From Myxococcota bacterium (GTDB taxonomy: Bacteria; Myxococcota_A; Polyangia; Polyangiales; Houyiibacteriaceae), in NCBI GenBank assembly GCA_039030515.1, contig JBCCEA010000006.1:73893-137892 (forward strand): DNA of 64,000 nt. The letters are read 5' to 3'. The notes beneath the pieces were generated by a model. That model saw nothing but the letters and a program-made list of their open reading frames with translations, made no database searches and was not told the origin of the DNA. The position numbers and the translations under genes are program-made. Positions 1,127-64,000 of the stretch are shown here, piece after piece; position 1 is the stretch's first letter, and each line of letters opens with the position of its first letter.

Positions 1127-1257
1127 GAGCCCGAGGGTACCAGAACGCCGCATCGCATCCGGAGAAAGCCGCTCGATGTCCCGCCGGCAGCGTTCGACGT
1201 CTCATCCGCCACCCGCCGAGCTGATGGGCAGGGTGGGGCGGTGGGACACGCGGATTA
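1020..1257. repeat. Copy A of direct repeat: sthA 5' end and upstream region
   Basis: Aligns by eye with 3932..4107. Confidence 0.95.
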
Positions 1258-3726
1258 AAGTTTCTCAGTTTCCCGCAGGAAGGCATCGATTGCATTGTCG
1301 TCAGTTTGATACTCACTGCCCCCCTGAGCCGGCAACTGTTCGACTGCTGGGTAGCCAAAATCACATCCAGCGGCTTTCCTCGCCATTTCGTCAAAATCAG
1401 GGCTTCTTGTACGAGCGGGAAAGCTAACACTTGTCAAATCCCGGGCCGCGGCTCCATGCGCCTCACCCACTCCGGCCTGGAGCCGCGGCCTCTTTGCTTG
1501 TGGCTGTGCGGAGGAAACGGGCGCTGGGGCTGGGGCACCCGAACTAGCGGGGGATGGGCTGGCATGAACCTCGAGCCAATCATTGTACCAATTTTTTACA
1601 AAAGATACTGCTCTCTGCGTTGAGTACCCTCCTCCGTCTTTGGCACCCAAGCGTATCGAAACCGCTTTCACCGCGTCATCATATAGGCATTGGGGTGAGT
1701 GATCGAGCAGGTAGTACAGATGTAGACGACTGGCGATGCTTTTGTACCCTTTTTCCCGCGATTTCGCATGCGGACCCTGACGCAAGAGCGCTTGAATCGC
1801 TTTGTGAACCGAGTCAAGTGAAAGAGATCGCTCTGCCTCCGTGAGACTCGAATTAGTCTGAAGAAAATCACGTGCCGAAGACAGACCTTGCTCTGAGCCC
1901 GAACGTGGTTCTTGTCTTAAGTTGCCGACAAGATCATGCAATTCTAACCAACCACTGAGTGCTTCCAGCACCTTTGGTGTGATTGCTAGCGGCGCTGTGT
2001 CTATCTCATGCTTAGACGTAAATCGTAGTGGAGCAACGCTCGCAGGCGCAGCGACGCGGGGCACATATGGAGGACGTGGCGCCGTGGCCGCAGCAGGTGC
2101 GGGTCTCGGGGGTGCGGCCGGCGCAGGGGCAGCGCTCGCACGCACGAAGGCTCGAGGTGGTGGCTGCCGGCATGATACTTGGCTAACAGGGGCTGCGGGT
2201 CTCGGGGCCCCGACTGGCGCAGGGGCAGCGCTCGCACGCACGAAGGCTCGAGGTGGTGGCTGCCGGCATGATACTTGGCTAACAGGGGCTGCGGGTCTCG
2301 GGGCCCCGACTGGCGCAAGGGCAGCGCTCGCACGCACGAAGGCTCCGGGCGGCGGTGGTGGCTGGTAGGGCGGCCAGCTAACAACGGGCGCTGGGGCTCC
2401 GGCCGGTACCGGCTGTTGTGGGTGTCTGATGACCGGTGGCGCGGTGGCTGCAGAACGAGCGTGCCGACTCTGTGTCCACGCCGCATACCACTGACCTACC
2501 AATTGTTTCGCTTGGTCGGGTTTGTACCCCTCTCCTTGCTTACCCTCTAAGAGTGTCTCCACTCTAGTCGTCGCAGCCAGATGAAGCTCAGGGGGATTAT
2601 CCGATAGCAGCCAGTGCAGATGTAGACGATAAGCCAAATCTTCGGACGATGTGTCCTGCCAGTTCGTGTACGGACCCTGACGTAAGAGTGCCTGAATCGC
2701 CCTCCGAACCAGGTCGCTTGAAGTAGATCGCTCTGCATCTGTGAGGCCGACATCATATTTAAGAGATATAGTCGCCCATTGTAGATAAAGATCATCTGGC
2801 GGTGTGTCTTGTGTGATGTTCGTAGGAGGCCTAATCAGGAGCAAAACATGAAGCCCCGACAGTACCTTTGGTGTGACGTCTACCGGCGCTGTCAATACCC
2901 GAATCTCATCCTCGGATAGTGGCGACATAGACGCCGTGGTTGCGGCTGGTGCGGGTCCAGCGCTCGCAGGTACGGTTTGAGCATAGGCGGGGGATTGCGA
3001 TGAGAGGGGGCCAGCAGTCGTTACAGAGGGCCCAGGTGCTGGAACCATATCCCGTTGGAGTGATTCGTAGATGCAGGCAAGCTGACGATAATCTTGTTCC
3101 CAATCAGTCCCGATCCCGATGTTCAAATTTCTTAATAAAGACGCACCATCTGATAAGAGGCTACTAGCCTCTATCGCAAGATGAGAGTCGCCACGAAGCC
3201 CAGAGTAAATGCTCTTCCACAGATCATTAATTTGGATATCGGTGGATATTGGGCACTCTCGATACTCGTGCCTCCGAAAAAGAAGAGCACATCTAAACAT
3301 AATCCGGACAACTCGCTCGCCGAGATTCCAAAACGCTGGACTTCGTATATGAAGTAGATGATGTGCGTGGTCGAAAGTGGGCCATCGTGCCGGATCAAGA
3401 TACGCTTGATTCGCTGCAGATAGCGGAACTTGTAGCGTTGCATAATACTGACTGAAACCTAGGTCATAACCTGCTGGTCTGGCTCCAGAACTACCGTCGC
3501 CAGCGGACGCCTGGTCGCATATTATGATGAGTAATTTAAGTATTTGCTCATCACTGCACCTGTCAGCGATACCAGTCCGAATGTACCTAAGTACTTGTTG
3601 AACGTTGCTCGGAGTTAGAAAATCAAGCGGTGAACGTTTTATGTGTTGGTCGATGATATGGGCGAAAAAGAGCGTGCGTATGATCAGAGCTGCTGACGGA
3701 AACAGTCGCACCTGCCCAGATTGCAT
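1255..3726 (-). CDS. Orphan 823-aa protein: N-terminal domain, two copies of a ~140-aa domain, Pro/Ala-rich linkers, NLS-like AKRPRL, acidic C-terminal tail
   Basis: Long ORF, visibly more AT-rich than the backbone in its globular parts. Internal duplication: TPKVL..L / LT.AERS / AIQALLRQGP / RLHL..LL / V..WY..W. Confidence 0.85.
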   Translation of the reverse strand: MQSGQVRLFPSAALIIRTLFFAHIIDQHIKRSPLDFLTPSNVQQVLRYIRTGIADRCSDEQILKLLIIICDQASAGDGSSGARPAGYDLGFSQYYATLQVPLSAANQAYLDPARWPTFDHAHHLLHIRSPAFWNLGERVVRIMFRCALLFRRHEYRECPISTDIQINDLWKSIYSGLRGDSHLAIEASSLLSDGASLLRNLNIGIGTDWEQDYRQLACIYESLQRDMVPAPGPSVTTAGPLSSQSPAYAQTVPASAGPAPAATTASMSPLSEDEIRVLTAPVDVTPKVLSGLHVLLLIRPPTNITQDTPPDDLYLQWATISLKYDVGLTDAERSTSSDLVRRAIQALLRQGPYTNWQDTSSEDLAYRLHLHWLLSDNPPELHLAATTRVETLLEGKQGEGYKPDQAKQLVGQWYAAWTQSRHARSAATAPPVIRHPQQPVPAGAPAPVVSWPPYQPPPPPGAFVRASAALAPVGAPRPAAPVSQVSCRQPPPRAFVRASAAPAPVGAPRPAAPVSQVSCRQPPPRAFVRASAAPAPAAPPRPAPAAATAPRPPYVPRVAAPASVAPLRFTSKHEIDTAPLAITPKVLEALSGWLELHDLVGNLRQEPRSGSEQGLSSARDFLQTNSSLTEAERSLSLDSVHKAIQALLRQGPHAKSREKGYKSIASRLHLYYLLDHSPQCLYDDAVKAVSIRLGAKDGGGYSTQRAVSFVKNWYNDWLEVHASPSPASSGAPAPAPVSSAQPQAKRPRLQAGVGEAHGAAARDLTSVSFPARTRSPDFDEMARKAAGCDFGYPAVEQLPAQGGSEYQTDDNAIDAFLRETEKL
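2098..2365. repeat. 96-bp in-frame tandem repeat, about 2.5-3 copies (32 aa, RAFVRASAAPAPVGAPRPAAPVSQVSCRQPPP)
   Basis: gcgca(g/a)gggcagcgctcgcacgcacgaaggctc recurs at 2121, 2217 and 2313. Confidence 0.95.
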
Positions 3727-3731
3727 ACAAA

Positions 3732-3760
3732 AACCTAGCAGGGAGGAGCTGGTGGTCCAA
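3732..3760 (-). promoter_or_regulatory. Putative sigma70-type promoter of the 823-aa orphan (possibly leaderless mRNA)
   Basis: Minus strand: TTGGAC-17 nt-TAGGTT with TG extension, ending 5 nt before the ATG at 3726; no Shine-Dalgarno in between. Confidence 0.4.
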
Positions 3761-62544: not shown

Positions 62545-63033
62545 ATGCTCCTAAGCGCTGAATCTAAAGGCAATAGAATCCGCCAGATTTGGGACGCGCT
62601 GCACCACGTTCCCGGAGGAACAAGGCTATTTTCCGCTTTTGTGGGCCGGATGGCACCCTACACCGGATCGATCGGGGCGCATGTTGAAGAACTGCGCTGT
62701 GGATTTGCGCGGGTGACGCTGCCGGACCGACCCAAGGTGCGCAACCACCTCCGTTCGGTTCACGCGGTAGCGCTGGTCAACTTGGCGGAGTTGGCGGGCA
62801 ACATCGCCCTTGCGTACTCACTGCCCGACGACGCGCGCTTTATCGTTGCCGGCCTCGAGATCGAGTACCTCAAGAAAGCCCGGGGAACGATCACCGCGAC
62901 TTCGGAAGCCCCGACGGTCGAGTCCAATCAGCGTGATGAATACCTGGTGCCTGTCCGATTGAATGACGCGCAAGGCGTGCTGGTTGCCCAGGCCACCTTG
63001 CGCACGCTGGTTGGGCCCAAGCGAGCGTCTTAG
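62545..63033 (+). CDS. HotDog-fold thioesterase-like protein (DUF4442/PaaI-like); start approximate
   Basis: APYTGSI, VRNHLRSVHAVAL.NLAE, IEYLKKARG. Confidence 0.85.
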   Translation: MLLSAESKGNRIRQIWDALHHVPGGTRLFSAFVGRMAPYTGSIGAHVEELRCGFARVTLPDRPKVRNHLRSVHAVALVNLAELAGNIALAYSLPDDARFIVAGLEIEYLKKARGTITATSEAPTVESNQRDEYLVPVRLNDAQGVLVAQATLRTLVGPKRAS

Positions 63034-63185
63034 AACCAGCCTGCGGTGCGTGGCATGGCGTGCATGCGGTGGTCGAGGGGCGGCAGGGTGCACGGCGTGT
63101 TTTTTGCAACGACGTTACAAGCCGAGGTCGGTCGTCCCCGACTGTCGGTGCGCGTTAGCTGGCCTAGGCGCGCGTTGGAGAACAA

Positions 63186-64000
63186 ATGCGCTTGCTGTAC
63201 CGTCGAAAAAGACCCGCTGCTCAGACCGAAGGTCCCGCCGACCCGGGAGCAAAAGGCAACCGGGACTGGCTTCAGAATGACCCAAAATGGGCTCGGCAGA
63301 TTTCTTCAGAGGGACGCGAGGCACTCAGGGCAGCGCTCGCACAGAACCCTCCTCAAACAAAAAGAGCCAAAGACTGGGGCACTAAGGTCATCGAAAAGGC
63401 CCTCGGTAAGCGTCCTTGGGACCGAGCCCCGAAGACCGAATCGAAGCTCCCGGTAATCTACCGATACATAGATTTTGTACTCCAAAGTCCGGCAGGGGTC
63501 GAGAATCCATCAGAACCACCAGCCCTCTCACTTCCAGCGCATCTGCCAGGTGTCGCAAGAAGGCTGGGCTCTTCGGGTGTGCCCACAGTCCGTTTCCTGG
63601 GTCGTGATGTCAGCACAGTTTTCTACTCAAAGCTTGATGAAACGCGCCGACTGCACGCACATCCGCAGACTCAACCCCCGCGCTATGATCACTGGAAAGT
63701 ACCTCCTGCGGTCTATTGGACTGAGGGCGGCACGCGTATCGTTACTGGTTATGAAGACGAAGTGAGGGTGTGGGATTGCAAGACCGGGAAGGCTTGCCTC
63801 GCACCTAAGTCCAGTGGGCGCGGATTACAAAGGTGCCGCTTAAGCCCGGACGGTGCTTCTGTGGCCAGCTACAGTTTGGGCTCGCTTGTGAGTTCGGTGC
63901 GTGTAAGCAGCACCGCAACCGGGAACATTACCGGTACACTGCGGCTGCCTTGCCGACTGAGGAATCTCTGGTTGAGCCCAGGTGGTGAGCATCTCGCGGT
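63186..64000 (+). CDS. Divergent WD40-family protein 4, 3' end outside window
   Basis: Not in ORF track. ggagaacaaATG at 63186, open to the window end: MRLLYRRKRP...SKLPVIYRY...PPALSL...VRFLGR...GTRIVTGYEDEVRVWDCKTG...LSPDGASVAS. Confidence 0.82.
   Translation, partial: MRLLYRRKRPAAQTEGPADPGAKGNRDWLQNDPKWARQISSEGREALRAALAQNPPQTKRAKDWGTKVIEKALGKRPWDRAPKTESKLPVIYRYIDFVLQSPAGVENPSEPPALSLPAHLPGVARRLGSSGVPTVRFLGRDVSTVFYSKLDETRRLHAHPQTQPPRYDHWKVPPAVYWTEGGTRIVTGYEDEVRVWDCKTGKACLAPKSSGRGLQRCRLSPDGASVASYSLGSLVSSVRVSSTATGNITGTLRLPCRLRNLWLSPGGEHLA

Follow-up and report, generated by a model that had tools for sequence, protein, structure and literature searches.

Lineage-restricted gene families from an uncultured marine, myxobacterium-like bacterium, one with an antitoxin-less RelE-like domain, as candidate conflict proteins

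Intracellular bacteria and the symbionts of amoebae and sponges possess eukaryote-like protein repertoires drawn from the F-box, U-box/RING, WD40, Sel1 and ankyrin families, and the type III effectors AvrRpm1, AvrB and those of the HopZ family of plant pathogens are N-myristoylated. Here we describe nine loci in a 64,000-nucleotide stretch of DNA (the window) from a Myxococcota metagenome-assembled genome (MAG). One of them, the gene o594, represents a family of at least 16 copies whose C-terminal domain is likely to adopt the fold of the RelE/ParE (BECR-type) toxins. The established toxins of this kind are stand-alone proteins of 85–100 amino acids (aa) with an adjoining antitoxin, while the polymorphic toxins (CdiA-CT, Rhs, the cargo RNases of type VI secretion systems, T6SS) are large proteins ending in a small RNase-type domain. 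A toxic protein may also be gated by its target cell: SidJ of Legionella is described as binding calmodulin through a C-terminal IQ motif and being activated thereby (PMC6858067), and CopC of Chromobacterium is presented as a calmodulin-gated effector (PMC9239266).

The window is C6:73893–137892 of the assembly (C with a number denotes a contig), one of its edges being a contig end. The assembly comprises 4.08 Mb in 75 contigs with 57.4% G+C; the MAG is rated 85% complete with 0.1% contamination and is the sole species representative of its genus. The nine loci (Table 1) fall into three unrelated, rapidly diversifying accessory gene families and one singleton. A preliminary description of the window had placed them correctly, as checking of the open reading frames (ORFs) and the sequence confirmed, but had treated them as lone orphans, whereas o594 has at least 16 copies, o823 and o587 share a modular family and the WD40 genes belong to a 15-ORF expansion. 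All nine fall in the bottom 10% of a codon-usage score built from the long ORFs of the genome (percentiles 0–10), while the neighbouring housekeeping genes mostly lie between the 25th and 99th; the gene caller was crude (3197 ORFs, 89% coding). The families are novel and of atypical composition, none of the other genomes searched contains them, and they undergo birth-and-death duplication, as the tandem arrays, the duplicated 3′ flank, the split and frameshifted copies and the strain-level hypervariability of o823 demonstrate. Genome-restricted families with this mode of evolution, one of them carrying an antitoxin-less RelE-like domain, are the solid result of this work. The traits of the families suggest conflict with other organisms. 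Our preferred reading, held tentatively and at somewhat less than even odds, is that the loci form an arsenal of conflict proteins acting inside other cells, most likely eukaryotic ones.

Table 1. Features of the nine loci in window coordinates
Feature	Coordinates	Strand	Remarks
o823	1255-3726	-	823 aa proline-rich modular orphan; AKRPRL at aa 744
Broken paralogue remnant of o823 type	3727-5168	-	split over frames, in-frame stops
Copy of 1017-1257	3929-4107	.	88-93% identical in three blocks; repeat analysis
o587	5169-6932	-	587 aa distant o823 paralogue; one C-terminal module; PKRSRR at aa 183
o594	21077-22861	-	594 aa; family with at least 16 copies
C-terminal domain of o594, about 125 aa	21080-21457	-	likely RelE/ParE-like (BECR-type) fold; alignment and AlphaFold2
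Basic cluster PRKSKRK, o594 aa 440-446	21524-21544	-	linker before the C-terminal domain
IQ-like helix IQRMARGIDARRSY, o594 aa 362-375	21737-21778	-	canonical IQ pattern
o301	28773-29678	+	301 aa; Cys/His-rich N-terminal half, C-terminal hydrophobic segment
WD40 gene 1	38477-39787 from conserved ATG (longest ORF to 39823)	-	start MRIWRR; Pfam WD40, 236 bits
WD40 gene 2	40063-41109 from conserved ATG (longest ORF to 41145)	-	MG start; Pfam WD40
WD40 gene 3	41369-42439 from conserved ATG (longest ORF to 42475)	-	start MGHRFSKPASK; Pfam WD40
Conserved leader/promoter of the WD40 trio	41110-41309	-	copies at 39788-39987 (95%) and 42440-42572 (99%)
wd271	63186-64000	+	ORF cut by contig end; RRKRP at aa 6; weak WD40-like C-terminal part

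The o594 protein begins with Met-Pro and basic residues and continues through a long helical region, an IQ-like helix and a Pro/Ala-rich linker with a basic cluster to the RelE-like C-terminal domain. Its two closest paralogues lie on C2 and C19, the C19 copy being split over two frames. Clustering of the codon-atypical ORFs gave two further groups related to o594, and a hidden Markov model (HMM) made from ten other members, with o594 left out, matches o594 at E 3.2e-18 (aa 324–593) and adds two more ORFs, on C29 and C17. A six-frame scan of the genome with a profile of the C-terminal domain yields 16 ORFs at E ≤1.3e-20, 15 of which were inputs of the profile and match by construction, the new one being on C7; a 17th match is weak (E 0.0014). 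Copies occur singly or in tandem (three on C2, three on C22, two on C35) between genes of typical codon usage, all members scored have codon scores of 0.028–0.083, and the copies at C2:182397–184180, C35:7432–9143 and on C19 are split or truncated. In the alignment the N-terminal part is variable and the C-terminal domain constant. No recurring small partner ORF and no antitoxin- or immunity-like gene was found beside the 15 copies inspected, the listed neighbours of which are of housekeeping type or further copies; the ORF upstream of o594 itself, with typical codon usage, looks by eye like a 2Fe-2S ferredoxin.

The AlphaFold2 model of the C-terminal domain built from 15 sequences, with a pLDDT of 93.3 and a pTM of 0.88, shows one strand and two helices together with a sheet of five strands; an earlier model from 4 sequences (pLDDT 49.7), for which Foldseek gave nothing usable, was replaced by it. 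In Foldseek the first four matches are all E. coli RelE (probability 0.82–0.84, E 0.06–0.17). A wide VIA search, independent of Foldseek, places Thermus RelE first (Z 5.8, 85 residues aligned, rmsd 3.8), and its 17 best rows are by title all toxin–antitoxin (TA) or contact-dependent inhibition (CDI) toxins (Z 5.8–4.1). The toxins matched by VIA include RelE, ParE, HigB, YafQ, YoeB, BrnT, PrpT, PfiT, CdiA-CT and, at rank 10, Cami1, and also the colicin D RNase toxin. The conserved positions of the domain are W4, H69, T71 and Y106 together with a GRHxxRxNxTY stretch, residues that could form an RNase site. A RelE-like fold is thus regarded as likely and membership of the RelE/ParE family as unproven, since the scores are modest and the relationship is invisible to sequence methods: even a profile of the 15 C-terminal domains gave 0 matches to PDB sequences up to E 10.

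Compared with the described RelE/ParE toxins, the domain is similar in the β-α-α-β-sheet arrangement predicted for its roughly 125 aa, in its best structural matches, which are to RelE (Thermus, Pyrococcus, E. coli and M. tuberculosis), HigB, ParE, YoeB, YafQ and BrnT, and in conserved His, Arg and Tyr residues near its C-terminus. It differs from them in lying behind about 470 aa of helical and linker sequence, in having no sequence match in Pfam or PDB and no adjoining antitoxin, in its at least 16 diverged copies and in the modest Z. The polymorphic toxins resemble o594 in overall build, and the genome does contain a T6SS. Their organisation is nevertheless the reverse, with a conserved N-terminus and a varying C-terminus in the scheme set out by Zhang et al. 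2012 (PMC3482391), and the o594 family lacks immunity genes, is unlinked to secretion genes and contains neither PAAR nor Rhs or filamentous-haemagglutinin parts.

The second distinctive trait of the family is the IQ motif. A textbook pattern, [FILV]Qxxx[RK]Gxxx[RK]xx[FILVWY], matches 9 of the 2949 ORFs of at least 100 aa over which all motif backgrounds were counted; four of the nine are family members, o594 included, with the motif at the same alignment position. The Pfam model PF00612 exceeds its cut-off of 20.3 bits in the paralogues C2:182861 (28.2 bits) and C2:186542 (29.8 bits) and falls just short of it in a third (19.2 bits). With this model the present genome gives 3 matches, and neither 40 relatives (24 from the same family, 16 from the same order) nor 14 control genomes give any, so that the matches are not a by-product of the Arg-rich helices of the clade. 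The shorter pattern IQxxx[RK] occurs 12 times in the 7,554 aa of the family; the remaining 1,186,726 aa contain it 222 times, so that its density in the family is 8.5 times higher. Several members have one to three IQ motifs, 60–130 residues upstream of the RelE-like domain, and the motifs share their alignment position across subfamilies of only about 20% identity.

The likeness to SidJ and CopC is that IQxxxR(G)xxxR motifs stand in a helix near a putative catalytic domain and could tie toxicity to a protein that only eukaryotes possess, as the accounts of these two effectors describe. The fold is different, RelE-like here and a kinase-like glutamylase or an ADP-riboxanase there; in the o594 family the IQ motifs, often tandem, precede the domain and are putative calmodulin-binding sites, and the organism is no known pathogen or symbiont. 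A separate IQ-bearing protein is encoded at C5:87447–88352 (L057:1–903): this codon-atypical orphan of 301 aa is unrelated to the o594 family, scores 23.9 bits, above the cut-off, its two IQ motifs being spaced by 24 residues close to the N-terminus.

Between the IQ helix and the C-terminal domain, the linker contains, at aa 439–515, a cluster of at least five K/R in eight residues in 6 of the 13 members screened, and the two closest paralogues of o594 are basic at the same place of the alignment. By this comparison PRKSKRK is a family trait and not an isolated chance motif, although the trait need not be a nuclear localization signal (NLS).

Under the criteria of a stricter first look, o823 and o594 have homologues in none of the 40 relatives, and the profile of the C-terminal domain matches none of 400 other genomes of the phylum; the lineage specificity claimed in the preliminary description therefore stands for these genes. 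Searches of 5.8 billion proteins with a word index, within the protein lengths covered, returned only their own entries for o594 and o587 and zero matches for o823, whose own entry was among what was missed. A profile of the o594 subfamily matched 4 of 1.84 billion representative proteins, all belonging to this genome; it also missed the other subfamilies of the same genome, and distant relatives could escape likewise. The ESM Atlas gave no usable match for o587, for which its model has a pLDDT of 0.39 and the structural rows are meaningless. Scans of viral and metagenome contigs revealed no relative. Two candidates were discarded: an apparent outside homologue proved to be C2:182397–182777 of this very genome, and a 29-residue match in a Peregrinibacteria MAG, from a scan of genome contigs, is regarded as spurious.

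The o823/o587 family provides the clearest traces of gene birth and decay. The layout of o823 comprises an N-terminal domain, two copies of a module of about 150 aa, three 96-nucleotide (nt) tandem repeats (2091–2378) and an internal duplication of 900 nt; the module, present once in o587, connects the two proteins (BLASTP E 1e-6 and 0.002), and its HMM also matches an ORF of 549 aa at C24:52747–54396 in three weak copies (full-sequence E 1.2e-6, the individual domains being weak). The codon scores of o823 and o587 are at the 2nd and 5th percentile, and no Pfam, PADLOC or NCBIfam family matched o823. Between the two genes lies the broken remnant, in which the piece 4507–4950 is homologous to aa 37–139 of o823 (30% identity, E 2e-6), while the similarity of the proline-rich ORF at 4105–4494 is of low complexity only. 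The repeat inside the remnant derives from a source that spans the 3′ flank of o823 and the 5′ end of the neighbouring gene for a pyridine-nucleotide disulphide oxidoreductase and is the footprint of a tandem segmental duplication. Contigs from three further runs, all of the same study and hence not mutually independent, contain pieces of o823 that are 5–9% diverged, as against 0–1.6% in the flanking pieces, and skip 135 or 198 nt inside the 96-nt repeats or add 42 letters at 2997, which suggests that repeat number in o823 varies between strains; stretches of these runs that have no contig cover carry no weight in this comparison. The start of o587, MFQPPPYLPPYV, includes, by eye, PPxY- and LPxY-like motifs such as WW domains bind.

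The WD40 trio, with PF00400 scores of 236, 207 and 195 bits, lies within a cluster of 15 similar ORFs, all codon-atypical, and the remaining atypical genes include four more divergent WD40-like ORFs. Lineage specificity does not extend to WD40 repeats as such: matches occur in 12 of the 40 relatives, at 30–38% identity and in the repeats only, in ORFs of 347–2196 aa that mostly are well over 570 aa, while identity among the paralogues inside this genome is 47–69%. The first approximately 70 residues of the window WD40 genes have no match in the relatives. The motifs MGHQFSK and MGHRFSK are located at codon 13 of the longest ORF, an internal ATG. This ATG is probably the true start of the trio genes, because the three copies are 95–100% identical over the 133–200 nt upstream of it and diverge downstream, and GGAAAG or GGAGAG is found 7 nt upstream. 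The idea that the leader is a common regulatory element was abandoned, as it occurs nowhere else in the genome beyond the three tandem copies. In wd271 there are only weak β-propeller matches, and its codon score is at the 1st percentile.

Six WD40 paralogues outside the window share an N-terminal region of about 50 aa that ends in PxWLR and resembles an F-box. Pfam finds no F-box in the four WD40 genes of the window.

The singleton o301 has the lowest codon score in the window (0th percentile). No family matched it, it has no paralogue at E <0.3, and the ESM Atlas offered no match and a low recognition score. Its C-terminal segment resembles a membrane anchor, with a transmembrane-like 19-mer at aa 260.

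Under our preferred reading, proteins of the o594 type, which apparently lack Sec signals, would be exported by the T6SS or by another route, and the RelE-like domain would cleave RNA in the target cell. It would be harmless in the producer if, as in Legionella SidJ, it required calmodulin, a cofactor that only eukaryotes possess, bound at the IQ helix; such dependence would account for the absence of immunity genes. The small WD40 proteins may serve as decoy adaptors, two of them with a myristoylation-type start and the paralogues outside the window with F-box-like N-termini, and the proline-rich o823/o587 proteins as scaffold mimics. Eukaryotic targets are favoured because the IQ motifs are specific to this genome, because a cofactor-gated toxin accounts for the lack of immunity genes, for which SidJ shows the principle, and because the scattered, orphan, compositionally odd and multi-copy pattern is like that of the effector repertoires of eukaryote-associated bacteria. 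The most elaborate form of this reading is improbable in our estimation; it would take some sixteen immunity-free ribonuclease effectors of RelE fold, activated by calmodulin only inside eukaryotic cells, together with WD40 decoys ready for myristoylation or F-box-like, to be an anti-eukaryote arsenal invented within one genus and having no relatives elsewhere.

The preliminary description saw no secretion system in the window; elsewhere in the genome a T6SS was found, with TssB, TssC, TssK, TssF, TssL/DotU and FHA on C32, TssG and Hcp on C44 and VgrG-type Phage_GPD on C47 and C1, while an injectisome and VirB4 were not. Its statement that the loci have no evident Sec or lipoprotein signal agrees with a crude hydropathy check, which saw no classical signal peptide in them; the N-terminus of o823, where a moderately hydrophobic stretch is broken by Arg, and the C-terminal anchor of o301 are caveats. 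TssC (C32:30369–31265) scores 359 bits on the VipB model, as compared with 421–446 for the best TssC of most TssC-bearing relatives, and the T6SS may be a divergent subtype.

The observations collected in this paragraph and the next weigh against eukaryotic targeting. The fold scores are modest, with Z of at most 5.8, where the tool itself notes that Z <8 may mean a common arrangement only, and Foldseek E of at least 0.06; no curated RelE, ParE, HigB or YoeB family is detected by sequence, either by Pfam up to E 10 on four C-terminal domains or by NCBIfam. By Pfam o594 itself has no IQ match, and only about half of the members in the alignment keep the [ILV]Q core at the IQ column. The F-box evidence stays below threshold and comes from genes outside the window: the paralogue C25:13754–15082 scores 21.2 bits on PF12937 (cut-off 24.3) and 19.6 on PF00646 (cut-off 20.5), and a profile of the six N-termini ranks the F-box of FBXW7 third in PDB at a non-significant E of 1.2. 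PAAR was not found in the genome, the window has no T6SS gene, none of the nine loci is linked to T6SS genes, and TssC is present in 10 of the 40 relatives too. The sole FHIPEP gene, a candidate for an injectisome, turned out to be FlhA in a flagellar cluster with FlhB, FliP, FliR, FliN, FlhF, FlgF/G and a sigma factor, and VirB4 was not found in the 85% complete genome. The host association proposed in the preliminary description meets only the habitat label 'marine metagenome', the DNA being present in four runs of one study; in view of the IQ motifs, the toxin-like fold lacking a neighbouring immunity gene and the sub-threshold F-box, eukaryote targeting itself is plausible but unproven.

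The short motifs on which that proposal had leaned are all present (AKRPRL, PKRSRR, PRKSKRK, RRKRP, MGHQFSK and MGHRFSK), although the number of loci bearing them reads as five and not six unless another locus was meant. As evidence the NLS-like ones fail, for a PSORT-type pattern (pat4 or pat7) occurs in 930 of the 2949 ORFs (31.5%), and its presence in at least four of eight intact loci, namely o823, o587, o594 and wd271, has a binomial P of 0.22. The myristoylation motif fares no better: MGxxx[ST], counted at an ATG within the first 40 codons, is found in 36 of 2949 ORFs, 5 of the 295 codon-atypical ones as against 31 of the 2654 others (Fisher p 0.40), and the two MG genes, being recent paralogues, count as one event. 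Motif enrichment in orphans over core proteins is thus at chance level for the loci and modest for the codon-atypical decile, in which basic clusters reach 42.7% as against 30.3% (p 2e-5) and five K/R of seven residues 18% as against 10% of the others; Arg, Pro and Ser are more frequent in this decile as well, and some of its ORFs may be spurious. The NLS-like and MG motifs fit eukaryotic targets without being evidence for them, and a proteome-wide background count should precede any use of short NLS-like and MGxxxS motifs as evidence for effectors. Of the claim of novel, actively duplicating effector families, novelty and duplication are confirmed, and the effector role for eukaryotes is unproven.

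Among the alternatives, the loci of o594 type might be intracellular immune sensors, in which a variable sensor is fused to a constant RelE-like RNase, held inactive in cis and released upon phage infection in a form of abortive infection, the diverged copies recording an arms race with phages. The combination of a variable N-terminus with a conserved C-terminal toxin fold fits this proposal also, and to that extent counts against eukaryotic targeting; the absence of signal peptides, the tandem arrangement of some copies, the strain variability and the presence of the RelE-like effector Cami1 among the structural matches agree with it too, and a missing antitoxin gene has a parallel in the fused single-gene TA modules as treated by Gerdes 2025 (PMC11980606). 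PADLOC, for its part, has no model for 11 of the 12 orphan and family proteins scanned, its sole match being a weak ZorA-like one to the N-terminal part of one member, and the copies stand between housekeeping genes, outside defence islands. Defence genes are usually spread by transfer, and a family with no homologue in 400 genomes of the phylum or among 1.84 billion representatives does not behave like them; the IQ motifs and the Pro-rich basic linkers would find no explanation either. We consider a role in immunity unlikely.

A similarly small chance is given to the absence of any conflict role, according to which these would be fast-evolving, weakly expressed genes of the lineage or acquisitions from an unsampled donor, possibly a eukaryote, with the motifs due to chance and o301 and wd271 perhaps non-functional. 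Very low codon scores, split or decayed copies, motif frequencies at chance level and the state of o301, with its low Atlas recognition score and lack of relatives, all speak for this. What it leaves unaccounted for is the maintenance of open frames of 550–820 aa in at least 16 diverged paralogues with a well-conserved, confidently folding domain, and the conservation of the IQ position across subfamilies with about 20% identity.

Least probable is that RelE-fold proteins are delivered into bacterial prey through the T6SS or another contact-dependent route. In its favour, myxobacteria are known predators of bacteria, a T6SS is present and the structural matches include CdiA-CT and colicin D RNase toxins. 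Against it, antibacterial toxins that reach kin normally need an immunity gene and none resembling one adjoins the 15 copies, the architecture is the inverse of that of polymorphic toxins, no PAAR was found, no family member lies on contigs with vgrG, hcp or the T6SS cluster (C1 set aside), and Pfam finds no known T6SS cargo marker domain in the loci or family members.

If the fold and the IQ motifs hold, the o594 family would represent a new architecture of RelE/ParE-type toxins, large, multi-copy, antitoxin-free and possibly gated by a cofactor that only eukaryotes possess, and eukaryotic targeting would be the first indication of an attack on eukaryotes, or of a life with them, by an uncultured marine member of a phylum that is mostly free-living and hunts bacteria. 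Regardless of this, a family whose shared domain folds confidently, with at least 16 diverged copies and no homologue among 1.84 billion representatives, is a striking case of family birth and expansion in one lineage, and a target for biochemistry.

The wider genome compares with symbiont repertoires in a similarly divided manner. Lineage-specific, atypical, multi-copy families among housekeeping genes are common to both, and the genome has WD40, Sel1, EGF, NIDO and Fam20C-like domains along with weak F-box signals and weak RING matches (E 0.008–0.3 in two ORFs scanned with Pfam); unlike in the symbionts, there is no known host, F-box and RING stay below the Pfam cut-offs, and no type IV secretion system or injectisome was found. 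EGF, Cys-rich repeats and WD40 on kinases are also common in free-living myxobacteria. The N-myristoylated type III effectors share with two of the WD40 proteins the MGxxxS followed by Lys at what is probably the true N-terminus, but the latter are two recent paralogues, show no enrichment of the motif and belong to a genome in which no type III injectisome was found. Small, flagellated, T6SS-bearing Myxococcota MAGs are reported from an anoxic spring, a free-living habitat, in a preprint (bioRxiv 10.1101/2021.07.06.451402), so that such traits alone do not indicate a host.

The window is otherwise mostly ordinary. Pfam assigns, among others, ThrE, NAD synthase, TauE, BamD-like, PhoH, SbcCD-like, RecBCD-like and AcrB/HlyD families and two Ser/Thr kinases among its 45 main ORFs, none of which matched an integrase or transposase family, as the preliminary description had stated. 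A mobile element as the vehicle of the o594 family was rejected: the flanks of 15 copies share sequence only inside the tandem arrays, and the window contains no tRNA and no Rfam family.

Beyond the loci, 88 further ORFs of at least 250 aa have low codon scores, 60 of them without a Pfam family at E ≤1e-4; the remainder contain EGF_CA/cEGF, NIDO, a Fam20C-like kinase, Sel1, Dicty_CTDC and matrixin besides ordinary bacterial domains. Codon-atypical ORFs with animal-type domains are found at C29:47545–48804 (Fam20C-like, 43 bits), C30:2808–4514 (NIDO, 108.7 bits), C7:84693–89288 (1531 aa with many calcium-binding EGF repeats) and C28:25726–27138 (a Sel1-repeat protein). Another similarity cluster of the genome, with 63 ORFs, is centred on Ser/Thr kinases. 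Effector-associated adaptor domains are known from conflict systems, and the first 67 residues of a Ser/Thr kinase of 1715 aa with a long TPR region (window 23453–28600, +) weakly match Effector-associated domain 7 (22.6 bits, cut-off 32).

The ATG-CCN (Met-Pro) start of o594 (window 22861) recurs in at least nine members of its family, is followed by basic residues, has no obvious Shine-Dalgarno sequence upstream and could serve the family as a common signal for export or translation. Next to the split o594 paralogue on C19 lies an ORF of 382 aa (L009:277–1425) that matches no Pfam family and in which GKAAKRQS is repeated three times in tandem close to the N-terminus. A Cys-rich ORF of the window (12342–13127, +) matches the plant family Stig1 above the cut-off (49.1 bits) and has a weak match to the MopE metal-binding motif. 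The pair o275/o312 (18351–20210, +) recurs at C9:76428–77937 with 27–32% identity; one of its genes is lipoprotein-like and the other has a signal peptide, a weak PEGA match and a C-terminal anchor. The pair was set apart from the nine loci on account of its signal- or lipoprotein-like N-terminus and the typical codon usage of o312, and looks like an envelope module.

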